DNA of 12,959 nt, from the IMG/VR virus record IMGVR_UViG_3300045988_138394. The stretch is one strand, 5' to 3'. Every line of letters begins with the position of its first letter. Within the stretch, counting starts at the first letter, position 1. Made by a program: the position numbers and the translations under genes. The notes under the pieces are model-generated. The model worked only from the letters and a program-made list of their open reading frames with translations. It did not search any database and was not told the origin of the DNA. Of this stretch, positions 277-12,959 are shown piece after piece. The DNA comes from a virus.

Positions 277-305
277 TTGACATTACTGGTTATATGGGTT
301 ATACT
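277..305 (+). promoter_or_regulatory. sigma70/sigmaA-type promoter of the plus-strand structural/lysis operon
   Basis: TTGACA (277..282), a 17-nt spacer, then TATACT (300..305). It faces the holin gene and no other plus-strand promoter-like site lies closer to 417. Confidence 0.7.
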
Positions 306-315
306 GTATACATAA

Positions 316-384
316 GGGCGGCGGACAGGTGCAGCGCCGGAAGCGCGTCCATGCTCTAGCACGGGGCATAAGCCGCCCGATTTT
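316..384 (+). ncRNA. Structured RNA element (three-way junction plus U tract): candidate small RNA or 5' leader attenuator
   Basis: P1 pairs 316-322 GGGCGGC with 372-378 GCCGCCC. P2 pairs 323-326/347-350 and 334-337/343-346, with a 7-nt bulge AGGUGCA and loop CGGAA. P3 pairs 351-356/364-369 with loop UAGCACG. UUUU follows at 381-384. The element starts about 4 nt after the predicted transcription start. Confidence 0.35.
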
Positions 385-416
385 ATAATATATCCGGCTG
401 AATTGGAGGAATAAAG

Positions 417-794
417 ATGCCTGTAAAAATTGTTATCATTGCCGTGCTTGTCGCTATACTCCTTGATTACGCGGTCGGAACGATTCGCGCGCTCTACTAT
501 TTGCAGACGGGCAACGAAGCGGATAAAGCCAAGTGGTGGACGTCGCGCAAAATGTGGGAGGGCATCGTGCACAAGGCGACCGAGGTTGTATTACTTTTTG
601 TTGCTCACGGTATTGATTTAGCCGCACCTTATTTTAACTTGCAGCTCCCGATATGCCTTATGGATTTTGTTGCTGCCTTTTTGGTTATTATGGAGTTAGG
701 CAGTGTGTTAGAGAATCTGCGTGACCTTAACCCCGGACTGTCCAAACCGATTGACACCATCGAACACTTTACGGGGGTGGACAAGCATGACTAA
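417..794 (+). CDS. Holin (phage holin family 4 / toxin-secretion-lysis holin type)
   Basis: GGAGGA lies 6 nt upstream of the ATG. The 125-aa product has hydrophobic segments and the pattern LDYAVGTI...W.SRKMWEGIVHK...IMELGSVLENL, typical of Phage_holin_4 proteins (recollection). Confidence 0.85.
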   Translation: MPVKIVIIAVLVAILLDYAVGTIRALYYLQTGNEADKAKWWTSRKMWEGIVHKATEVVLLFVAHGIDLAAPYFNLQLPICLMDFVAAFLVIMELGSVLENLRDLNPGLSKPIDTIEHFTGVDKHD

Positions 795-1104
795 AGAATA
801 TCGTCTGACAGCCGAAATTACAGACGGCAAACTGGTCATAGCGAAACAGGACGGCAGCGCTTTTGAAGTTGTCGCAACACCCGTTGAAAACGGCGCAAAG
901 TTTCCGGCGGTAGGTTTTGGCGCAATAGGCGCGGTAACCACGGTGTTACAGGCGCTGTTGCGCTACTACGGACACAAAATATCCATTGACGGTATTTTCG
1001 GTGCTGATACGCGCGCGGCTGTCGTAGATTTTCAGACCGCGTGCAACATTCCGGTAGATGGTTATGTTTCACGTGAAACATGGGCAAAACTTTTGGAGGG
1101 ATAA
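787..1104 (+). CDS. Stand-alone peptidoglycan-binding domain protein (PG_binding_1-like), 105 aa
   Basis: The C-terminal half, VLQALLRYYGHKISIDGIFGADTRAAVVDFQTACNIPVDGYVSRETWAKLL, fits the PG_binding_1 consensus (LQ..L...G....DG.FG..T..AV..FQ.....DG.....TW..L). I prefer ATG 787 (GGGGGTGG 6 nt upstream, overlapping the holin stop) to the track's GTG at 721. Confidence 0.8.
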   Translation: MTKEYRLTAEITDGKLVIAKQDGSAFEVVATPVENGAKFPAVGFGAIGAVTTVLQALLRYYGHKISIDGIFGADTRAAVVDFQTACNIPVDGYVSRETWAKLLEG

Positions 1105-1107
1105 TAT

Positions 1108-1443
1108 ATGACAATTGACGACGTTTTGGCATTGGCGCGCTCCGGATATACCCGCGATGAGATAGCGGCATTGAACCAGCCCCCGCAGCAGCAGCATGCA
1201 CCCGCAGCACCCGCAGCACCCGCAGCACCCGCAGCACCCGCACCCGCAGCACCCGCAGCACCCGCACCCGAAGCACCTGCACCCGAAGCCGTCCCGGCAT
1301 GGGCAGAAGCGCTCAATACCAGTATTGCAGCTTTGACTCAGCGCATAACGGCAATTAATATCGGCGGTACAATCCCCGCACAGCAGCCGCAGACGGTTGA
1401 CGCGATACTTGCGGAGATTATCGCGCCGCAGCCGAAAAAGTAA
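1108..1443 (+). CDS. Putative scaffolding protein with a Pro/Ala-rich repeat linker
   Basis: GGAGGG RBS. The 111-aa gene lies immediately upstream of the capsid gene, in the position of phi29 gp7. The function is inferred from position and size only. Confidence 0.5.
   Translation: MTIDDVLALARSGYTRDEIAALNQPPQQQHAPAAPAAPAAPAAPAPAAPAAPAPEAPAPEAVPAWAEALNTSIAALTQRITAINIGGTIPAQQPQTVDAILAEIIAPQPKK
1201..1290 (+). repeat. In-frame 9/6-bp microsatellite (CCCGCAGCA / CCCGCA)n encoding PAAPAAPAAPAAPAPAAPAAPAPEAPAPEA
   Basis: Direct reading: four consecutive CCCGCAGCA units from 1201, then mixed CCCGCA / CCCGCAGCA / CCCGAAGCA units up to 1290. Confidence 0.9.
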
Positions 1444-1460
1444 CAGGAGGTAACAACAAA

Positions 1461-2639
1461 ATGCCCGTAAACACTCTCAGTTTTAACCAGCTCTCGACGC
1501 TGCTTAACGGCATCGCGTCGCAGGCTACGGGCGCGGCTAGTATCGCGCCCGTTAACACCAACGAGTTTGTATCAGTCGCACAGACGGCTCTGCTCGCCGG
1601 TGCAGACCCGGTAATGTCCGCCATATCGCAGATACTTGGTCGTAGCATTTTTAGTATCCGTCCCTATAACGCAAAGTTTAGGGGTCTGCTGATGGATAAT
1701 CAGCGTTGGGGGGGCATTACCCGCAAAATCAACTACGTTGATAAATCGTTTACCAACGATAGTGGTTTTGCGCTCACTGACGGCGAGGCTATAGACCAGT
1801 ACACTGTCAACAAGCCGGAGGTCGTACAGACGAACTATTACGGCTCCAATATTTACCAGAAAAGTATCACCATTTTTAGAGATCAGCTTGATACGGCGTT
1901 TAGCGGCGTCGACCAGTTTGCGGAGTTTATCGGCGGGGTAACGCAGAATATCTCCGACCAGATAGAGCAGGCGCACGAAAACACCGCGCGCATGACCGTT
2001 GCAAACCTTGTCACCGGCATCATAGCTGCGGCAAAGGCAAACCAGATTGTACATCTCCTCACCGAGTATAACGCGGTGACCGGTCTTGAGCTGACAGCGA
2101 CCACGGTGTATACTCCTGCAAACTTTAAACCGTTTATGCAGTGGGTCTACTCCCGCATTGCGCAGGTGTCATCCATGCTTACCGAGCGTAGCCAGACATA
2201 TCACTTTAATCTCACGGGCAAGCCCATACAGCGCCACACTCCGTATGATCGGCAGCGGCTCTATCTCTATGCCGCTGGGCGCTACCAGTCCGAGGCGCAG
2301 GTGCTCGCGGACACTTACCACGATAACTATCTCCGTTTCGGCGAAACTGAGACTGTCAATTTCTGGCAGTCAATCGAGAAGCCTGACCAGATACAGGCGA
2401 AGCCCTGCTATCTCAAGGAGGCAGACGGCACGGTTATCACCGCCGCAGATAATGTCACACAGGCAAATGTTTTTGCAGTGATGATGGACGAGGAGGCTGC
2501 AGGCATGAACATATTTAATTATGAGCTGACCAGCACGCCGTACAACGCTCGCGGCAGATACAACAATTTGTGGTGGAGCTTCAACGAGCGCTACTTCAAC
2601 GATTTCACCGAGAACGCGGTTGTTTTCCTCCTTGACTAA
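1461..2639 (+). CDS. Major capsid protein (phi29 gp8-like, HK97 fold, no C-terminal Ig-like domain)
   Basis: AGGAGG RBS, 392 aa. The C-terminal block NARGRYNNLWWSFNERYFNDFTENAVVF resembles the phi29 gp8 block [28 protein letters not shown] (from memory). The gene is followed by a strong terminator. Confidence 0.8.
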   Translation: MPVNTLSFNQLSTLLNGIASQATGAASIAPVNTNEFVSVAQTALLAGADPVMSAISQILGRSIFSIRPYNAKFRGLLMDNQRWGGITRKINYVDKSFTNDSGFALTDGEAIDQYTVNKPEVVQTNYYGSNIYQKSITIFRDQLDTAFSGVDQFAEFIGGVTQNISDQIEQAHENTARMTVANLVTGIIAAAKANQIVHLLTEYNAVTGLELTATTVYTPANFKPFMQWVYSRIAQVSSMLTERSQTYHFNLTGKPIQRHTPYDRQRLYLYAAGRYQSEAQVLADTYHDNYLRFGETETVNFWQSIEKPDQIQAKPCYLKEADGTVITAADNVTQANVFAVMMDEEAAGMNIFNYELTSTPYNARGRYNNLWWSFNERYFNDFTENAVVFLLD

Positions 2640-2654
2640 TCGCGTTTCAAGATA

Positions 2655-2683
2655 CAGCCCCGGTAACACGGGGCTGTTTTGTT
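2655..2683 (+). terminator. Rho-independent terminator/attenuator after the capsid gene
   Basis: CAGCCCCG (2655-2662), loop GTAACA, CGGGGCTG (2669-2676), then TTTTGTT. Confidence 0.75.
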
Positions 2684-2694
2684 AGGAGCATGAA

Positions 2695-4251
2695 ATGATA
2701 ACAATTAAACTCTATCAGTTTGCCAAGCGCACAAACAGCACAAAACGTCCGAATGACCAGACGGACACGGTGCAGGTTTTTGACGGCAATATAGCCAACG
2801 CTACGAGCATGTTAACTCCCACGGTTATTGTTGATTTTACGTCACTCAAAGTTGGCAATGCCTCATACAATCCGTTGCCGTGGACTTATGCATTTATCGT
2901 CGAGTTGCGGCGGTACTATTTTGTAACCAATTGGACGTGGGCAAACGGTGTATATTATGCGGATTTGGCTGTTGATGTATTGGCAACATTTAAAGCAGAG
3001 ATTTACGCAAGCACTTTATATGTCACTAGAGCATCAAAAGCTTTTGATGGGCTTGTGCCTGATACTCTATATCCAGCGGTCGCTAATGTCGACCATGTAA
3101 CCACAACAAAAGCCACACCATGGGAGACTAGTTTTGAGAGTGACAACGGTACATTTTTAGTTGCTACAATGTCAGGTGATAGGACAAGCACCGCGGGCAT
3201 ATCATATTATGTTATGGGCTTGTCATCGTTTAGGACGTTTATGTACAATACGTTTAATTCGGTTGATTGGCTAAATATACCGGCGTCAGAAATATCACAG
3301 TCATTGCAAAAAGTTTTGTTTAATCCCTCACAGTACGTGATATCCGTTATGTGGTTCCCCAAGATTTTAATTGGCGGCGGCGATACAGACCCAATTGACC
3401 ATGTACGAGTTGGTTGGTGGGCAATCCCAATAGGCGGCGGCTACAAGCTGCAAGGCAATTTGTGGGAGTCCGGCGAGCAAACAATAACGATTCCTAAGCA
3501 TCCACAAGCTGAAGATAGGGGTGCTTGGTGCAATCTCTCTCCATATAGTACATATAGTCTTGAGTTTTGGCCGTTTGGGCAAATTGCCCTTGACAGCTCC
3601 AAACTTGTGGGGATTACCACGCTTAAATTGTCATATGTAATTGACTATCTCACAGGCGCGGCAACTCTACGCGTAACCGGCAATCTGACGGACTCCGCAA
3701 TAGCGATAACAAGCGCGCAGTTAGGTGTGCCGATATCCCTCGCGCACATTACGTATGATTTGTCGCAGTTATCTAATATGTCAACATGGGTGGCCACAGC
3801 TGGTGCCGCACTGCTGCAAAACCCGGATATTGTAAAGACCGCTGTTAAAGATGTTGTGTTGGGAGCGCCTGTAAAGCGTTTTGACTACGCAGGATATTTT
3901 AACGGCACGCGCGAGGATGTCGGGGAATCAGCAAATACGGGTTTGACATTTAGCGAGGTTGCGAACTCTATCGGCAACGCGCTTGGCGCGGTTATTGGTA
4001 GCGGGCAGACAAGCGGCGTTAATGGCAGCACAGCACAACTTGGTTTGGGTATGCGCGTTAATGCTGATTTTATGCTGCTTGCACCCGATGACAACGAGCA
4101 CAACGGCAGGCCGCTTTGTATAAAAGCGCAACTATCCACGCTCGCGCCCGGTTTTGTCAAATGTCAATCCGGAGATATCGAGGTTAATTGCCCGGCAGCA
4201 GAACGCAACGCAATTAACACCTTTTTGACAGGAGGCGTGTACCTCGAATGA
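2695..4251 (+). CDS. Tail knob / distal tail tube protein (phi29 gp9-like)
   Basis: 518 aa. The N-terminal blocks WTYAFIVEL...DLAVDVLATF resemble phi29 gp9 WFYAFVTEL...EIDVLQTW. A Gly/Ala-rich loop (IGNALGAVIGSGQTSGVNGS) is present. The C-terminal GFVKCQSGDIEVNCPAAERNAINTFLTGGVYLE resembles gp9 [33 protein letters not shown] (from memory). Confidence 0.65.
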   Translation: MITIKLYQFAKRTNSTKRPNDQTDTVQVFDGNIANATSMLTPTVIVDFTSLKVGNASYNPLPWTYAFIVELRRYYFVTNWTWANGVYYADLAVDVLATFKAEIYASTLYVTRASKAFDGLVPDTLYPAVANVDHVTTTKATPWETSFESDNGTFLVATMSGDRTSTAGISYYVMGLSSFRTFMYNTFNSVDWLNIPASEISQSLQKVLFNPSQYVISVMWFPKILIGGGDTDPIDHVRVGWWAIPIGGGYKLQGNLWESGEQTITIPKHPQAEDRGAWCNLSPYSTYSLEFWPFGQIALDSSKLVGITTLKLSYVIDYLTGAATLRVTGNLTDSAIAITSAQLGVPISLAHITYDLSQLSNMSTWVATAGAALLQNPDIVKTAVKDVVLGAPVKRFDYAGYFNGTREDVGESANTGLTFSEVANSIGNALGAVIGSGQTSGVNGSTAQLGLGMRVNADFMLLAPDDNEHNGRPLCIKAQLSTLAPGFVKCQSGDIEVNCPAAERNAINTFLTGGVYLE

Positions 4252-4790
4252 GTTGGACAGCTAAAAACGCGGCTCTATCTCAAAGTGAGATGGAGGGCAA
4301 CGCGACAGAGATATATTATGACCTCAAATCACGCGGATGGAGCACCGAGGCCATAGCGGCAACTCTCGGCAACATGCAAGCGGAGTCGCTTATAAATCCG
4401 GGCGCATGGCAAAATTACATTGTCGGCAGTGGTGGCGGCGGTGGCTACGGCCTTGTCCAGTGGACTCCGTGGACACATTTTACTGACTACGCTGACCGCT
4501 GGGGAGTTGCACACGATGACGGCAACGCGCAGCTCCGGTGGATTGACGAGGTAACCGTGCCTTTTGGTCAGTGGGTACCCACAGCAGCATATCCTATGAG
4601 TTTTGCCAGCTACAAAATTAGCACAGAAGCTTGTGAATACCTGTCAACCGTCTTTTTGTACAATTTTGAGCGTCCTGCCGAATATAACATTGTGACACGG
4701 CAGCAGTATGCGCGCGTGTGGTATGACTTTATAACAAAGTTGCCCACGTCAAAAGGTATCCCGATTTGGCTGTTGTTTAAATTTAACTAG
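4248..4790 (+). CDS. Tail-associated lysozyme (phage tail lysozyme, phi29 gp13 N-domain type)
   Basis: ATGA overlap with the knob stop. The motif AIAATLGNMQAESLINPGAWQ....GGGGGYGLVQWT matches the GN...ES..NP ... GG.G..QWT signature of the Phage_lysozyme2 family (recollection). Confidence 0.8.
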   Translation: MSWTAKNAALSQSEMEGNATEIYYDLKSRGWSTEAIAATLGNMQAESLINPGAWQNYIVGSGGGGGYGLVQWTPWTHFTDYADRWGVAHDDGNAQLRWIDEVTVPFGQWVPTAAYPMSFASYKISTEACEYLSTVFLYNFERPAEYNIVTRQQYARVWYDFITKLPTSKGIPIWLLFKFN

Positions 4791-4801
4791 GTGGTGATAC
4801 A

Positions 4802-5707
4802 ATGGCACAGCCCCCATTTTTTTACAATTATATGAATGTTGCTATGTCCGGTGTCGAGCCGAACATGCTGCATGTGCTCGATAGCGAGCAAGGCCGATTT
4901 TTCCAGCGGTATTTGCTGAAAAAGGCATTGTCCGTTTTTAAATGGCGAGTGCCGGAAAACTGGAATAAGGACTATTTTTTGTATACGCTGTATTGTTACG
5001 GCTATGTTGCAATCATCAATACCAACGCATACGGCGTAATTCCACAGATATGCACGCTCAGCGGGTACAATGTCTTTTATCAGCCCACAACTGCGATTAT
5101 TGCAAATCCGTATTTGCGAGGTATCAAAACTCCGCGTATCGGTACGGAGTGTGCATTAATCAAGCTACAGCCCGATTACTGCGGTGTTATGGATTTGTGC
5201 GCACACTATGCAGCTAAAATGGCGCTTATCTCCAGCAGTATTGATAGCAACTTATTTAACAGCCGCGTTGCGTATGTCTTTTTTGCTAGTAACAATGCCT
5301 CGGCGACAAGTTTTAAAAAACTGGCTGACGACATCGCTAGCGGACATGCGGCAACCGTAGTTGACAAGCAGCTTAAATCCGCAGACGGCAAACTCGATTA
5401 TGAGATTTTTAATCGTGATGTTAAAGCATCATATATCGTGTCTGACCTCATATCCGATTTGCGCAAAATCGAGGCAGAGTTTGATACCAAAATCGGTATA
5501 CCCAACGCCAACACCGACAAGCGCGAGCGGCTTATTGCCGACGAGGTCAATGCAAACAACTTTGAGACAAACGCAATGGTGGGTATGTGGTTAGATAATA
5601 TCAACCTCAGCATCACCCAGGCTGAAGAGCTGTTTGGCGCTCTTGATATATCTGTAGATTGGAGGGATGATTATGCGAGCGACAATGTCAGTCGCGGGGC
5701 TGTATAA
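4802..5707 (+). CDS. Portal / upper collar connector protein (phi29 gp10-like)
   Basis: GGTGGTG RBS, 301 aa (phi29 gp10 is about 309 aa). The block KIGIPNANTDKRERLIADEVNAN resembles gp10 [23 protein letters not shown]. The N-terminal FFQRYLLKKALSVFKW resembles the gp10 YLNYLQSLAYQLFEW region (from memory). Confidence 0.8.
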   Translation: MAQPPFFYNYMNVAMSGVEPNMLHVLDSEQGRFFQRYLLKKALSVFKWRVPENWNKDYFLYTLYCYGYVAIINTNAYGVIPQICTLSGYNVFYQPTTAIIANPYLRGIKTPRIGTECALIKLQPDYCGVMDLCAHYAAKMALISSSIDSNLFNSRVAYVFFASNNASATSFKKLADDIASGHAATVVDKQLKSADGKLDYEIFNRDVKASYIVSDLISDLRKIEAEFDTKIGIPNANTDKRERLIADEVNANNFETNAMVGMWLDNINLSITQAEELFGALDISVDWRDDYASDNVSRGAV

Positions 5708-6221
5708 TTATGATACCACGCTCTTTGACGGGCTGACCGTCCCGGACGGCATGGACAAAGACACGCTTGTTACACTGATACTCCAAAACACATATAACAT
5801 GGAGTGCGTGTATTTTGATGGTGATTTTCTCAAAGCTGCAATAACCGCGTGGAGCGCTGCCAACCAGTACAAATGGCGCACACTCCAAAAAACGACGGAA
5901 TTTACATATAATCCCATCGAAAACTATGACCGCAAAGAAAATTATACAAACACTGATACTGGCACTATTACCAGCGAGGGCACAGGGACAAGTTACGCGA
6001 CGGCATTTAACAGCGATGATGACAAAAAAACAGGCAAATCTACTAGCGGAGGCACTAATACGCAAGACATTACACACACCGTTGATGGCAGTGTCCACGG
6101 CAATATCGGCGTTACCACGACACAGCAAATGATTAATTCGGAGCGCGATGTTGCCGACTACTCTGTGTATATGGCTATCGTCAGCGATTTTAAGCATGAG
6201 TTTTGTGTGTTAGTGTATTAA
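5673..6221 (+). CDS. Probable lower collar / head-tail adaptor protein
   Basis: The gene lies immediately after the portal, as phi29 gp11 does. GGAGGG (5661-5666) sits 6 nt upstream of ATG 5673; the track's ATG 5667 abuts the RBS. I recognise no motif, so the function is inferred from position only. Confidence 0.4.
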   Translation: MRATMSVAGLYNYDTTLFDGLTVPDGMDKDTLVTLILQNTYNMECVYFDGDFLKAAITAWSAANQYKWRTLQKTTEFTYNPIENYDRKENYTNTDTGTITSEGTGTSYATAFNSDDDKKTGKSTSGGTNTQDITHTVDGSVHGNIGVTTTQQMINSERDVADYSVYMAIVSDFKHEFCVLVY

Positions 6222-6231
6222 GGAGGCGTTT

Positions 6232-6564
6232 ATGATTACATATCCGTACACAAATTATCAGGATGCAAACCTTGATTGGATTTTAACCGTCGGAGCGGAG
6301 TTGCGCGCGTGTTTTGAGCCGGTCGAGGTTAGCGGCACTGATAGTTATAAGGAGCTTGTACGACGTGGAGCACTGGCAACTATCAGATACACGGATGTCA
6401 CATACACTGACAGTCTGTCAATTATACTCCCCGTTAGTCGTATTGACGAAGCGAGCCAAAAGCTCTATTTTACTGGCACATATCACAACGGCACTCGTTT
6501 TGTTGCCGTAGCCGTCACAGTTGATTATTATGGCAATATTGCCGCGACACGTAAACTGCTATGA
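6232..6564 (+). CDS. Small virion-associated protein sharing the N-terminal anchor motif of the fibre (110 aa)
   Basis: AAGGAGG RBS. The N-terminus MITYPYTNYQDANLDWIL parallels MINKYPYTNYQDINLDWLL of the next gene. The rest is unrelated and looks beta-rich. Confidence 0.55.
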   Translation: MITYPYTNYQDANLDWILTVGAELRACFEPVEVSGTDSYKELVRRGALATIRYTDVTYTDSLSIILPVSRIDEASQKLYFTGTYHNGTRFVAVAVTVDYYGNIAATRKLL

Positions 6565-7394
6565 TTAACAAATATCCATATACAAATTATCAAGACATAA
6601 ATCTCGATTGGCTGCTCCGCAAAGCTGGCGACATTGACAAGGTATCAATCATCGCCAACAATGCAGCAAATAGCGCAGTTAACAGCGCCGCCGAGGCTAA
6701 AGCGGCAGCCACAAACGCCGCCAACAGTGCGGCGGCAGCTGAAGCGACAGCCAACACGTTAGAGCCGCGTATTGCCGCCGCGACCGCAGAAGCGACAGCC
6801 GAGGCTAAAGCGGCAGCCACAAACGCCGCCAACAGTGCGGCGGCAGCTGAAGCGACAGCCAACACGTTAGAGCCGCGTATTGCCGCCGCGACCGCAGAAG
6901 CGACAGCCGAAGCTAAAGCAGCGGCCACAAACGCCGCCAACAGTGCGGCGGCGGCTGAAAACAGTGCAACCGAGGCCAAACAGGCCGCTGCAAGCGTCCC
7001 GTCTCTTTTGGATGTGCTCAAAGCTGTTTATCCCGTGGGAGCGTTTTATATCTCCGCTACGGCAACCTCGCCGCGTGCTGTGTTTGGGTTTGGCACTTGG
7101 ACGCAAATCAAGGATAGATTTATCCTTGCTGCTGGTGATACTTACCCGGCGGCAAGCAGTGGAGGCGAGCCCGAGGTAACATTAACAACAGCACAGATGC
7201 CCAGTCATAATCACGGCTTGCCGCATCCTAACCAAGCAGGTGACATTACCGCGCCCATCGCGTTTTTTGTCGAATCTGATACAACTAAAACATTTGGAGC
7301 CGTCGCTTGTTATAGCAACAACGCGGGCGGCGGCGAGCCGCACAATAATATGCCCCCATATCTCGCGGCATACATTTGGCAGCGGACAGCATAA
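6561..7394 (+). CDS. Tail fibre / appendage with an Ala-rich repeat shaft and a tail-collar-type C-terminal receptor-binding domain
   Basis: ATGA overlap with the upstream gene. The C-terminal signatures GGEPEVTLTTAQMPSHNHG and GGGEPHNNMPPYLAAYIWQRTA match the (V/H)TLT..QMP.H.H ... GGG.PHNN..PY pattern of phage tail-collar / short-fibre receptor-binding domains (recollection). Confidence 0.75.
   Translation: MINKYPYTNYQDINLDWLLRKAGDIDKVSIIANNAANSAVNSAAEAKAAATNAANSAAAAEATANTLEPRIAAATAEATAEAKAAATNAANSAAAAEATANTLEPRIAAATAEATAEAKAAATNAANSAAAAENSATEAKQAAASVPSLLDVLKAVYPVGAFYISATATSPRAVFGFGTWTQIKDRFILAAGDTYPAASSGGEPEVTLTTAQMPSHNHGLPHPNQAGDITAPIAFFVESDTTKTFGAVACYSNNAGGGEPHNNMPPYLAAYIWQRTA
6693..6959 (+). 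repeat. 108-bp in-frame tandem repeat, about 2.5 copies, inside the fibre gene
   Basis: Copies at 6693-6800 and 6801-6908 read identically. A third partial copy from 6909 carries three synonymous changes and diverges after about 51 nt. The unit encodes EAKAAATNAANSAAAAEATANTLEPRIAAATAEATA. Confidence 0.95.
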
Positions 7395-12743: not shown

Positions 12744-12959
12744 TACAATTTGTACACAATGCGCAAACAAACCGCACTTTTTTGCTAGATATTGGAAATT
12801 GTGCAATGTGCATAAATTCAGCGGTGATTTTTTGTTGATGTTGCACTATTGACAAATTGGGCTTTTGTGTATCTTGCATAGTTTTTGAGCTTTATTTTTG
12901 TGTAATTTGCCTATTGACACGCATGGCCTTTGTGTATCTTGCATAAAAATCATGGGGGA
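12744..12959. repeat. Right inverted terminal repeat (216 bp)
   Basis: Exact reverse complement of 1..216. It ends in ...CATGGGGGA, mirroring the 5' TCCCCCATG at position 1. Confidence 0.95.

Follow-up and report, generated by a model that had tools for sequence, protein, structure and literature searches.

A three-way-junction RNA, apparently of an undescribed family, at the head of the late operon in very small phi29-like phages

What is the function of a compact structured RNA that lies between a strong promoter and a lysis gene? This question is raised by IMG/VR virus record IMGVR_UViG_3300045988_138394, a stretch of 12,959 nucleotides (nt; henceforth the window) that is the complete linear genome, 13 kb, of a phi29-like phage, as shown by perfect inverted terminal repeats of 216 nt (1-216 and 12744-12959, with internal 33-nt sub-repeats). 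Within it, a 63-nt three-way junction at 316-378 lies upstream of the holin gene and heads the late, rightward operon of this very small phage. Our analysis shows that 316-378 encodes a member of an apparently undescribed structured-RNA family at the 5' end of the late transcript, which runs from holin through scaffold and capsid onward; in full-text searches of the literature we found no pRNA-like or other structured RNA described in these phages. That the structure exists and is conserved is virtually certain. For its role, we tentatively prefer a counterpart of the phi29 prohead or packaging RNA (pRNA), a reading that we would not yet call probable and that we weigh below against several rivals.

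Upstream of the element a consensus scan placed the late promoter at 277-305 (-35 TTGACA 277-282, N17, -10 TATACT 300-305; window features are on the plus strand unless stated otherwise), in agreement with an initial annotation of this DNA that had been made from the sequence alone. This promoter matches the sigma-70 consensus at 11 of 12 positions, is the second-best site in the window, and predicts from its -10 spacing a transcription start at 311-313, 3-5 nt before the closing helix. Folding 312-392 with RNAfold gave a three-way junction of -32.8 kcal/mol (z = -2.3; 6 of 200 shuffles folded equally well), an energy that for a single sequence is only moderately unusual on its own, and the junction was kept when 129 nt were folded. 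The predicted fold reproduced exactly two parts of the structure drawn in the initial annotation: the closing or "A" helix, formed by GGGCGGC (316-322) and GCCGCCC (372-378), and hairpin 2 ("D", 351-369), with a stem of 351-356/364-369 and a loop at 357-363 (U-A-GCAC-G) that presents GCAC at 359-362. The minimum free energy structure departed from the drawing only within hairpin 1, where it paired GUGC (329-332) with GCGC (343-346). We rejected this pairing, which other clades do not conserve; the comparative data favour hairpin 1 as originally drawn, with an outer stem or "C" helix of GGAC (323-326) and GUCC (347-350), a 7-nt bulge A-G-GUGC-A on the 5' side (327-333), and an inner hairpin ("E", 334-346) in which GCGC (334-337) and GCGC (343-346) enclose the pentaloop CGGAA (338-342). 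Two unpaired residues, AA (370-371), link hairpin 2 to the closing helix. Rfam 15 had no match near the element at E <= 10, and a tRNA search of the window found none. A small open reading frame in the leader was also considered and rejected, as only ATG-CTC-TAG is present.

To ask whether this fold is shared, we gathered relatives through homologues of the holin and the contigs that carry them, and through covariance models. Searches at the nucleotide level returned little: megablast with the whole window as query matched no GenBank phage, exact-pattern scans with 22/23-mers of the element found none in IMG/VR or genome contigs, a scan with the 22-mer hit three loci in metagenome contigs (L040 and L042 among them), and a holin-anchored search of IMG/VR yielded one incomplete contig only. 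Through nine holin homologues (66-90% identity) we reached contigs, all of which have the promoter and the element. Close relatives share an invariant core, GGACA[A/G]GUGCAGCGCCGGAAGCGCGUCCAUGC, and vary in promoter spacer, linker and holin; in one of them (L039), both the closing stem and hairpin 2 show compensatory swaps. In L040 and L042 the same core lies mid-genome, behind its own TTGACA-N17-TATTAT promoter and before a scaffold gene, with a wholly different closing helix (GAAAGCUCCC/GGGAGCUUUC). We built a covariance model, R1, from 13 sequences, and it matched nearly all IMG/VR relatives recovered by their capsid protein (37-59% capsid identity). A second model, R2, added further loci and GenBank gut-phage records. 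A scan of IMG/VR with an ATPase profile then revealed more than 507 relatives, and R2 matched 60 of the 80 that were fetched at E < 0.1. In 31 + 60 loci, plus extras, R1 or R2 matches immediately behind the late promoter; every match is on the late-gene strand, and each genome has one significant match. Altogether the element is present in about 95 contigs, and the cultured Amedibacillus phage AD70P3 carries it with the same architecture after its ATPase gene. The phages that carry the family form a large phi29-like clade, with genomes of 12-15 kb, protein-primed replication and a gp16 ATPase, sampled from gut and other metagenomes. A sequence-free structure descriptor recovered the element in the window, AD70P3, L045 and L021; we dropped it as a survey tool, since shuffled genomes gave 0-1.8 matches each and the bulged helices of phi29 pRNA escaped it.

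A separate observation concerns L040 (3002-3077, minus strand) and L042 (4545-4620). Their 33-nt RNA core is 100% identical to that of the window, while their capsid, portal, ATPase and polymerase are only 36-54% identical to the window's; in other clades about as distant in protein, the helices have fully covaried. Exchange of the RNA as a module, or a shared partner, could account for the identical core.

We next asked of the aligned sequences whether the helices covary. Two alignments fitted to the covariance model were scored, A3 (30 distinct sequences) and A5 (53 distinct sequences, mostly from independent contigs). In A5, 89.9% of cells were paired versus 54.7% after shuffling, and the covariation score was 0.889 versus 0.198, a value that 0 of 500 shuffles reached and that slid controls (<= 0.154) did not approach. 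The corresponding figures for A3 were 89% versus 63% of cells paired and a score of 0.647 versus 0.160 (0 of 500 shuffles; slid controls 0.07-0.14), and in both alignments each helix has changes on both sides of the pair. Because A3 and A5 had been fitted to the model, 18 diverse members were also aligned with plain MAFFT and folded with RNAalifold, which recovered hairpin 2, the closing helix and the two stems of hairpin 1, with compensatory changes in 18 of 20 predicted pairs. Every pair of the closing helix shows such changes. The C helix is paired in 100% of cells, with double changes such as GUCC/GGAC and GCAC/GUGC, and the E stem is likewise 100% paired and covaries at all four pairs. 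Hairpin 2 has compensatory changes in its central stem pairs, U357-G363 and the two outermost pairs often being lost, and the junction between D and A measures 2-5 nt and usually ends in A (A3, A5). Family-wide, the closing helix has 6-14 base pairs (bp); arm 1 has two stems of 4-5 bp each, separated by a bulge of 6-10 nt on the 5' side and capped by a C-N-G-A-A loop; and arm 2 has a 3-7 bp stem and a 5-11 nt loop. The arm-1 loop is nearly invariant, usually CGGAA with the variants CUGAA, CAGAA, CGAAA and CCGAA. The covariation in about 95 relatives, an analysis across homologous contigs that the initial annotation had proposed, places the structure far beyond chance.

The initial annotation had further pointed out that GUGC in the bulge (329-332) is complementary to GCAC in the loop of hairpin 2 (359-362). 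This pairing is absent from both covariance models, and it proved to covary throughout the family: it is paired in 99% of A3 and, owing to register shifts, in 81% of A5, through GC, AU, UA and CG pairs. Between 3 and 8 nt of the bulge are Watson-Crick complementary to the arm-2 loop, and we counted at least 15 different complementary combinations, including GUGC/GCAC, GCAC/GUGC, UUGC/GCAA, ACGC/GCGU, AUGC/GCAU, AGUC/GACU, GAGC/GCUC, UGUC/GACA, UAGC/GCUA, GACC/GGUC, GGUC/GACC, GGAC/GUCC and CAGC/GCUG. Inspection by eye and the descriptor scan added GAAAC/GUUUC, CUAUC/GAUAG, GUCG/CGAC, AUCC/GGAU and an 8-bp pairing, AAAAGGAA/UUCCUUUU. To judge from these sequences, the contact between the bulge and the arm-2 loop is real, and the covariation fits an intramolecular and an intermolecular contact equally. 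Two candidate explanations were discarded along the way: a CsrA site in the E loop, as the variants CUGAA, CAGAA and CGAAA lack GGA, and a double-stranded DNA operator, given the compensatory helix changes and the asymmetric bulge.

Could the element simply be an intrinsic terminator, or a functionless GC-rich fold that arose by chance? In the window such a reading has its attractions: the single-sequence z is only -2.3, and the GC-rich stem is followed at 379-389 by GAUUUUAUAAU, the U tract noted in the initial annotation, which belongs to an AU-rich linker (379-392, GAUUUUAUAAUAUA) with a U4 run and a -10-like TATAAT (384-389). Yet a terminator scan made no call on this arrangement of a 7-bp GC stem and GA-UUUU-AUAAU, and 12 of 13 close relatives lack the U tract and have AAUACUAUAAU, ACUAUUAUAAU, GUUCAAAACAU and similar sequences instead. 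The element therefore does not qualify as a conserved terminator, and the massive covariation effectively refutes both the plain terminator and the chance fold.

Terminator-like 3' ends do occur, in only about a quarter of the members. A T-rich tail directly follows the closing helix in 16 of 83 distinct members (a count that leaves the window's own tail aside), and UUUU is found within 10 nt in 12 of 81 tails versus 4.0 in shuffles, an excess of about threefold. In the L084 clade (L084, L091, L094 and L098), a canonical terminator, CAGGCGG-loop-CCGCCUG-UUUUAUUA, stands directly after the element (L084 ~3644-3675). In one further genome (L049; MT836587, 5058-5206), a tRNA-Gln with anticodon UUG starts where the element ends, before the late genes, so that RNase P would release the element. 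Judging by these tails, terminators and the tRNA, the phages seem to produce a discrete RNA, or at least to tolerate one. Independently, an exact TATAAT occurs 3-8 nt past the closing helix in 15 of 81 tails versus 1.5 in shuffles, in the window and at the equivalent position in about six clades; it could be a pause element or an effect of composition.

The 5' side is more uniform. An equivalent promoter, TTGACA-N16-18-TAnnnT, directly precedes the element in all relatives of the first set, and pattern matching found one for 39 of the 60 further family matches. As the end of the -10 box lies about 6-12 nt before the first closing-helix pair across the family, the RNA should start at the helix or within 5 nt of it. 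In genomes whose genes all point one way, the promoter (TTGACA-N17-TATAAT) falls within the last codons of the ATPase gene (~2860-2900 in L008, and others), and the same bases therefore both code and serve as promoter. The initial annotation had reasoned from an unregulated strong promoter. That premise is uncertain, because an inverted repeat, TATATTACG-TAG-CGTAATATA, lies at 222-242, just inside the terminal repeat; some 35 nt separate it from the -35 box downstream. The close clade conserves the arms of this repeat, a candidate operator, and the promoter may hence not be unregulated.

Which known RNA is built in this way? The origin of pRNA is debated, as is the docking of the ATPase in other gp16-type motors. 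We compared the family with phi29 pRNA, using the RF00044 structure line from the Rfam run on phi29 (145 bits). The helix order is the same, A, then C with its 5' bulge and the E hairpin, then the D hairpin, and in both RNAs a tetramer in the bulge is complementary to, and covaries with, the arm-2 hairpin loop. In both, the 3' strand of arm 1 is continuous, its inner stem has 4 bp, and arm 2 is a stem of about 6 bp closed by a loop of about 5 nt. The length of about 63 nt is also that of the phi29 prohead-binding domain (bases 22-84; PMC5066667). Where the capsid-contacting loop of phi29 sits, the family has a terminal loop containing N-G-A, the most conserved part of the RNA; in the phi29 motor structure, U54, G55 and A56 of the pRNA E-loop contact the E loops of the capsid protein (PMC8104870). 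The likeness extends to the surroundings, as the host phage has a phi29-like capsid, connector and gp16 ATPase and protein-primed replication, and the RNA begins at the transcription start of a strong promoter (as predicted for the family). In its build the element resembles the phi29 prohead-binding domain, and it may work in a similar manner.

The two RNAs also differ in detail. Relative to phi29, the family has an A/C junction of 0-1 nt versus 1 nt, a C helix of 4-5 bp versus 9 bp, a 5'-side bulge of 6-10 nt versus 9 nt with AACC, an E helix of 4-5 bp versus 4 bp, an E loop of 5 nt versus 6 nt, a C/D junction of 0 nt versus UUU, a D helix of 3-7 bp versus 6 bp, a D loop of 5-11 nt versus 5 nt with GGUU, and a D/A junction of 2-5 nt versus 0 nt. 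The family closing helix is without the CCA bulge of phi29 and the family has no domain II. Whereas phi29 pRNA is a separate early unit at the genome end, the family RNA is the 5' leader of the late operon, and, unlike phi29 pRNA, it has an additional covarying pairing with the downstream leader.

We consider as our tentative preference, to be held at less than even confidence, that the RNA is this clade's counterpart of the phi29 prohead/packaging RNA, reduced to the prohead-binding domain and made as the leader of the late mRNA. It would be transcribed from the strong constitutive promoter, starting at the closing helix, as phi29 pRNA is at promoter A1. Leaky termination, or cleavage by nucleases in the AU-rich linker, might yield a discrete species; in one genome tRNA processing might do so. 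Each molecule would pair through its bulge with the arm-2 loop of the next to form a ring at the portal vertex, the invariant loop would touch the phi29-type capsid protein, and the ring would aid docking of the gp16-type ATPase, which is nuclease-less. The packaging reading accounts best for the topology and the invariant loop, for the start at a strong promoter, for the adjacency to the ATPase gene (the RNA gene lies directly 3' of it in most genomes) and for the tRNA and terminator cases. An analogy with pRNA had already been drawn in the initial annotation, which noted a gp16-like motor in this phage. The motor assignment holds, since ATPase, phi29-type capsid protein and connector all matched, and of the readings then offered the packaging one has become the best supported, on the strength of helix order, bulge side and covarying tetramers; missing from its support are an Rfam match and a closing helix of pRNA length. 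The objection raised at the time, that the portal lacks the basic RKR cluster, has lost weight, because phi29 pRNA contacts the capsid E loops and hardly touches the portal (PMC8104870).

Several observations count against a packaging role. The A helix has about 25 bp in phi29 (PMC5066667), versus 6-14 bp in the family and 7 bp in the window, and its bases 1-28/92-117 are needed for packaging (PMC5066667). The window has no RF00044 match at E <= 10, and R1 and R2 do not match phi29. Among related phages with gp16-type ATPases, CI55P1 and LE1-1 (an Eggerthella phage), like phi29 itself, gave no match to R2 run with filters off, and Cp-1 had neither an R2 match nor a pRNA in its annotation. An older paper reportedly predicted a pRNA for Cp-1, which a pRNA covariance model is said to have been unable to confirm. 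Contacts between bulges and loops of three-way junctions are known from riboswitches and hammerheads as well. As no model match was obtained in either direction, homology to pRNA is unproven, and the resemblance could be convergent or coincidental; given this lack of model similarity, the short and variable closing helix and the leader position, we did not file the family as a member of RF00044. The remaining objections, namely the distance to the first gene, the constancy of the holin, the scarcity of terminators and a second downstream pairing, are those that speak for an action in cis, and we set them out next.

A possible, if somewhat unlikely, alternative is that the element is a cis-acting 5' leader that governs the stability of the late mRNA and/or translation of its first gene, the holin. 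Conceivably, the pseudoknot-locked 5' fold blocks decay that depends on the 5' end (RNase J/Y in Firmicutes); it is about as conceivable that the invariant loop binds a trans-acting protein of phage or host. The position of the element is what such a leader would have. In all clades transcription is predicted to start 0-5 nt from the closing helix; the element stands 15-55 nt ahead of the first late gene across the family; and in the 60 further matches a start codon preceded by a Shine-Dalgarno sequence (in the window GGAGG, 405-409) follows at a median of about 25 nt past the 76-nt model match, which itself extends a few nt past the closing helix. In about 75% of members no terminator follows the element, and a closing helix of variable length would do a leader no harm. 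The adjacency to the holin has, moreover, outlived both gene replacement and genome rearrangement. The first late gene in the relatives is nearly always a holin, and those 3' of the RNA belong to two unrelated families, phrog_4898 (62-75 residues) or Phage_holin_4_1 (120-125 residues), as exemplified by the first genes of L008 (3001-3201) and L075 (3676-4038).

A further sign, here of a role within a longer transcript, is a sequence that we call anti-E. In the window it is UCCGGC at 393-398, complementary to G336-A341, and it covers the last two bases of the 5' strand of the E helix and four loop bases. It was found in 26 of 80 distinct members as a stretch of 6-8 nt, 7-12 nt past the closing helix (shuffle p <= 0.015 each), and it covaries with the 3' part of the E-helix 5' strand and the loop: UCCGGC/GCCGGA (window), UCCGGCU/AGCCGGA, UCCGGG/CCCGGA, UCCGAGA/UCUCGGA, UUCCGGGA/UCCCGGAA and, where the loop is CUGAA, UCAGG/CCUGA. 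Anti-E must compete with the E helix, which argues that the element of those phages also works within a longer leader, and the presence of anti-E in about one third of members suggests a function in a longer transcript. Perhaps the E/anti-E switch tunes access to a ribosome-binding site 6-15 nt downstream, and with it the timing of lysis, in that third of the family; we rate this, too, as possible and on the unlikely side. A conserved palindrome, GTATAC-N2-4-GTATAC, was seen about 40 nt after the element and before the Shine-Dalgarno sequence in L092, L096, L112 and L121.

The cis-leader reading best explains the fixed position before the ribosome-binding site, the missing terminators, the variable closing helix and anti-E. 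It leaves the covarying bulge/loop pairing and the invariant C-N-G-A-A loop unexplained, as a stem alone suffices as stabiliser; the tRNA of L049 or the terminator of the L084 clade would sever such a leader from its mRNA; at least four genomes have the scaffold gene first, not the holin, and keep the RNA; and two thirds of the members are without anti-E. Two known systems illustrate the point. Firmicute 5' stabilisers (the aprE and ermC leaders, phage SP82) likewise place a stable structure a few nt from the predicted 5' end of a highly expressed transcript, here in a Firmicute phage, yet those known are plain stem-loops or ribosome-binding sites that have neither conserved tertiary pairings nor an invariant loop. 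Flaviviral exonuclease-resistant RNAs are three-way junctions locked by long-range pairings, in which, as in one third of the family, a hairpin loop pairs with the single strand 3' of the closing helix. Different arms are involved in the two, the family has no pseudoknot that passes the 5' end through a ring, and its RNA sits at an extreme 5' position where a simple stem suffices, so that we regard this resemblance as a topological analogy only.

A packaging role and a role in cis could also be combined. In one such scheme, which we consider quite unlikely, the leader would restrain holin translation through the E loop/anti-E switch, and the E loop would be captured by assembling proheads. Capture would free the leader and couple the timing of lysis to capsid assembly and the progress of packaging.

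A gate acting on transcription was another proposal of the initial annotation, which considered a terminator or attenuator, or a put-like antitermination RNA. The terminator part is mostly unsupported, given the loss of the U tract in close relatives and the low count of T-rich tails; the canonical terminator of the L084 clade leaves room for put-like or attenuator gating. The element would then act in cis on polymerase, or serve as the binding site of a phage antiterminator, a mechanism that we think unlikely, and it is equally unlikely that it decides read-through at terminators just past itself and further down, as after the capsid gene. HK022 put RNA is likewise a structured RNA of ~65-70 nt just past a strong phage promoter, with terminators downstream in some members of the present family, and by analogy the family RNA could act on its own polymerase. 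The lambda PR'-6S RNA-tR' region offers a second parallel, a strong constitutive late promoter with a possible termination point within ~100 nt, which here applies to the window, the 16 relatives with T-rich tails and the L084 clade. The constant placement directly after a constitutive-looking strong promoter, the tails and terminator just named, the terminator-like hairpin past the capsid gene (2654-2677) and the downstream TATAAT of about six clades, which could be a sigma-dependent pause site, are all in keeping with a gate. However, three quarters of the members have no nearby terminator and the U tract is lost inside the window's own clade; there is no mutually exclusive terminator/antiterminator pairing, and in the L084 clade anti-E is located past the terminator. 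The put RNAs are two simple stem-loops with no such bulge/loop pseudoknot; and, unlike the lambda region, the family conserves an RNA fold and not a terminator, with no Q-like protein or qut site identified.

Even less can be said for a riboswitch, the third proposal of the initial annotation, in which the junction and loop contact would form a ligand pocket and anti-E part of the expression platform. Three-way junctions with long-range loop contacts are common among riboswitches, and one third of the members has an alternative downstream pairing. Against this, Rfam 15 gave no match at E <= 10; the junctions, at 0-1, 0 and 2-5 nt, leave almost no unpaired core, the few conserved unpaired bases being mainly in the E loop; anti-E, with its 26 of 80 members, is no universal expression platform; and a late structural operon gives no hint of a metabolite. 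We thus regard ligand sensing as very improbable. Harder still to credit is a self-cleaving ribozyme, or a tRNA-like module that recruits a nuclease, by which the element would detach from the late mRNA. A small conserved junction RNA at the 5' end of a phage transcript, followed by an AU-rich linker and in one genome by an adjacent tRNA, would suit such a module; it matches no Rfam ribozyme family, has too few conserved core nucleotides, and its closing helix of 6-14 bp is not the fixed 7 bp of an acceptor stem.

The genome that carries the element is organised as follows. Phi29_MCP, a GP10 connector and a Gp16 ATPase are encoded in the window (PF25622, PF05352 and PF05894 matched). The late block (417-7394, plus strand) opens with the holin gene (417-794; PF05105 Phage_holin_4_1, E = 9e-16), which confirms the holin call of the initial annotation, and continues with a peptidoglycan-binding protein, a scaffold-like protein, the Phi29_MCP capsid protein, a tail lysozyme, the GP10-type connector and a Gp10_C fibre. 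A lysis gene in first place of a late operon is itself unusual. The minus-strand block holds a gene for a protein like the phi29 single-stranded DNA-binding protein (SSB), a DNA polymerase of 665 residues, a likely terminal protein and the Podovirus_Gp16 ATPase. From its translation, the polymerase is likely a protein-primed enzyme of family B; the homologous reading frame of 665 residues in a close relative (L034) is PF03175 DNA_pol_B_2. The layout of the window is convergent, with late genes on the plus strand and replication and packaging genes on the minus strand, while most relatives are unidirectional, in the order polymerase, SSB, ATPase, element and late genes on a single strand. A promoter matching the consensus at 12 of 12 positions (7857-7829, minus strand) lies inside the minus-strand block before the phi29-SSB-like gene (7777-7442). 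Strong terminator-like hairpins follow the capsid gene (plus strand, coordinates given above) and separate the two convergent operons (7423-7400, minus strand). The scaffold-like protein has Pro/Ala-rich tandem repeats of 9/15 nt (1189-1311), the fibre gene has three 108-nt repeats (6690-7013), and an N-terminal YPYTNYQD.NLDW motif is common to a 110-residue protein and the fibre (6240-6279 / 6572-6611).

What would these findings mean for phi29-like phages? Until now, pRNA has been described as unique to phi29 and its relatives among Bacillus phages (PMC5066667; PMC11476376). A second RNA family that shares the pRNA design helix for helix, together with a covarying loop pairing, would bear directly on the debates about pRNA origin and ATPase docking. 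The family has no detectable sequence or model similarity to pRNA, and its clade is distinct and, with more than 507 relatives in IMG/VR, highly abundant. Either outcome is testable, because a cultured member, Amedibacillus phage AD70P3, exists. If the dual role were true, it would be an RNA-based checkpoint without known precedent, and RNA-dependent packaging motors would be widespread in gut phages. If the element is a packaging RNA, RNA-dependent DNA packaging extends beyond the Salasmaviridae, and its minimal natural version, at about 63 nt, would be of interest to the study of motor mechanics and to RNA nanotechnology. Otherwise, the family would represent a new class of cis-regulatory RNA that governs late genes and lysis in gut phages.

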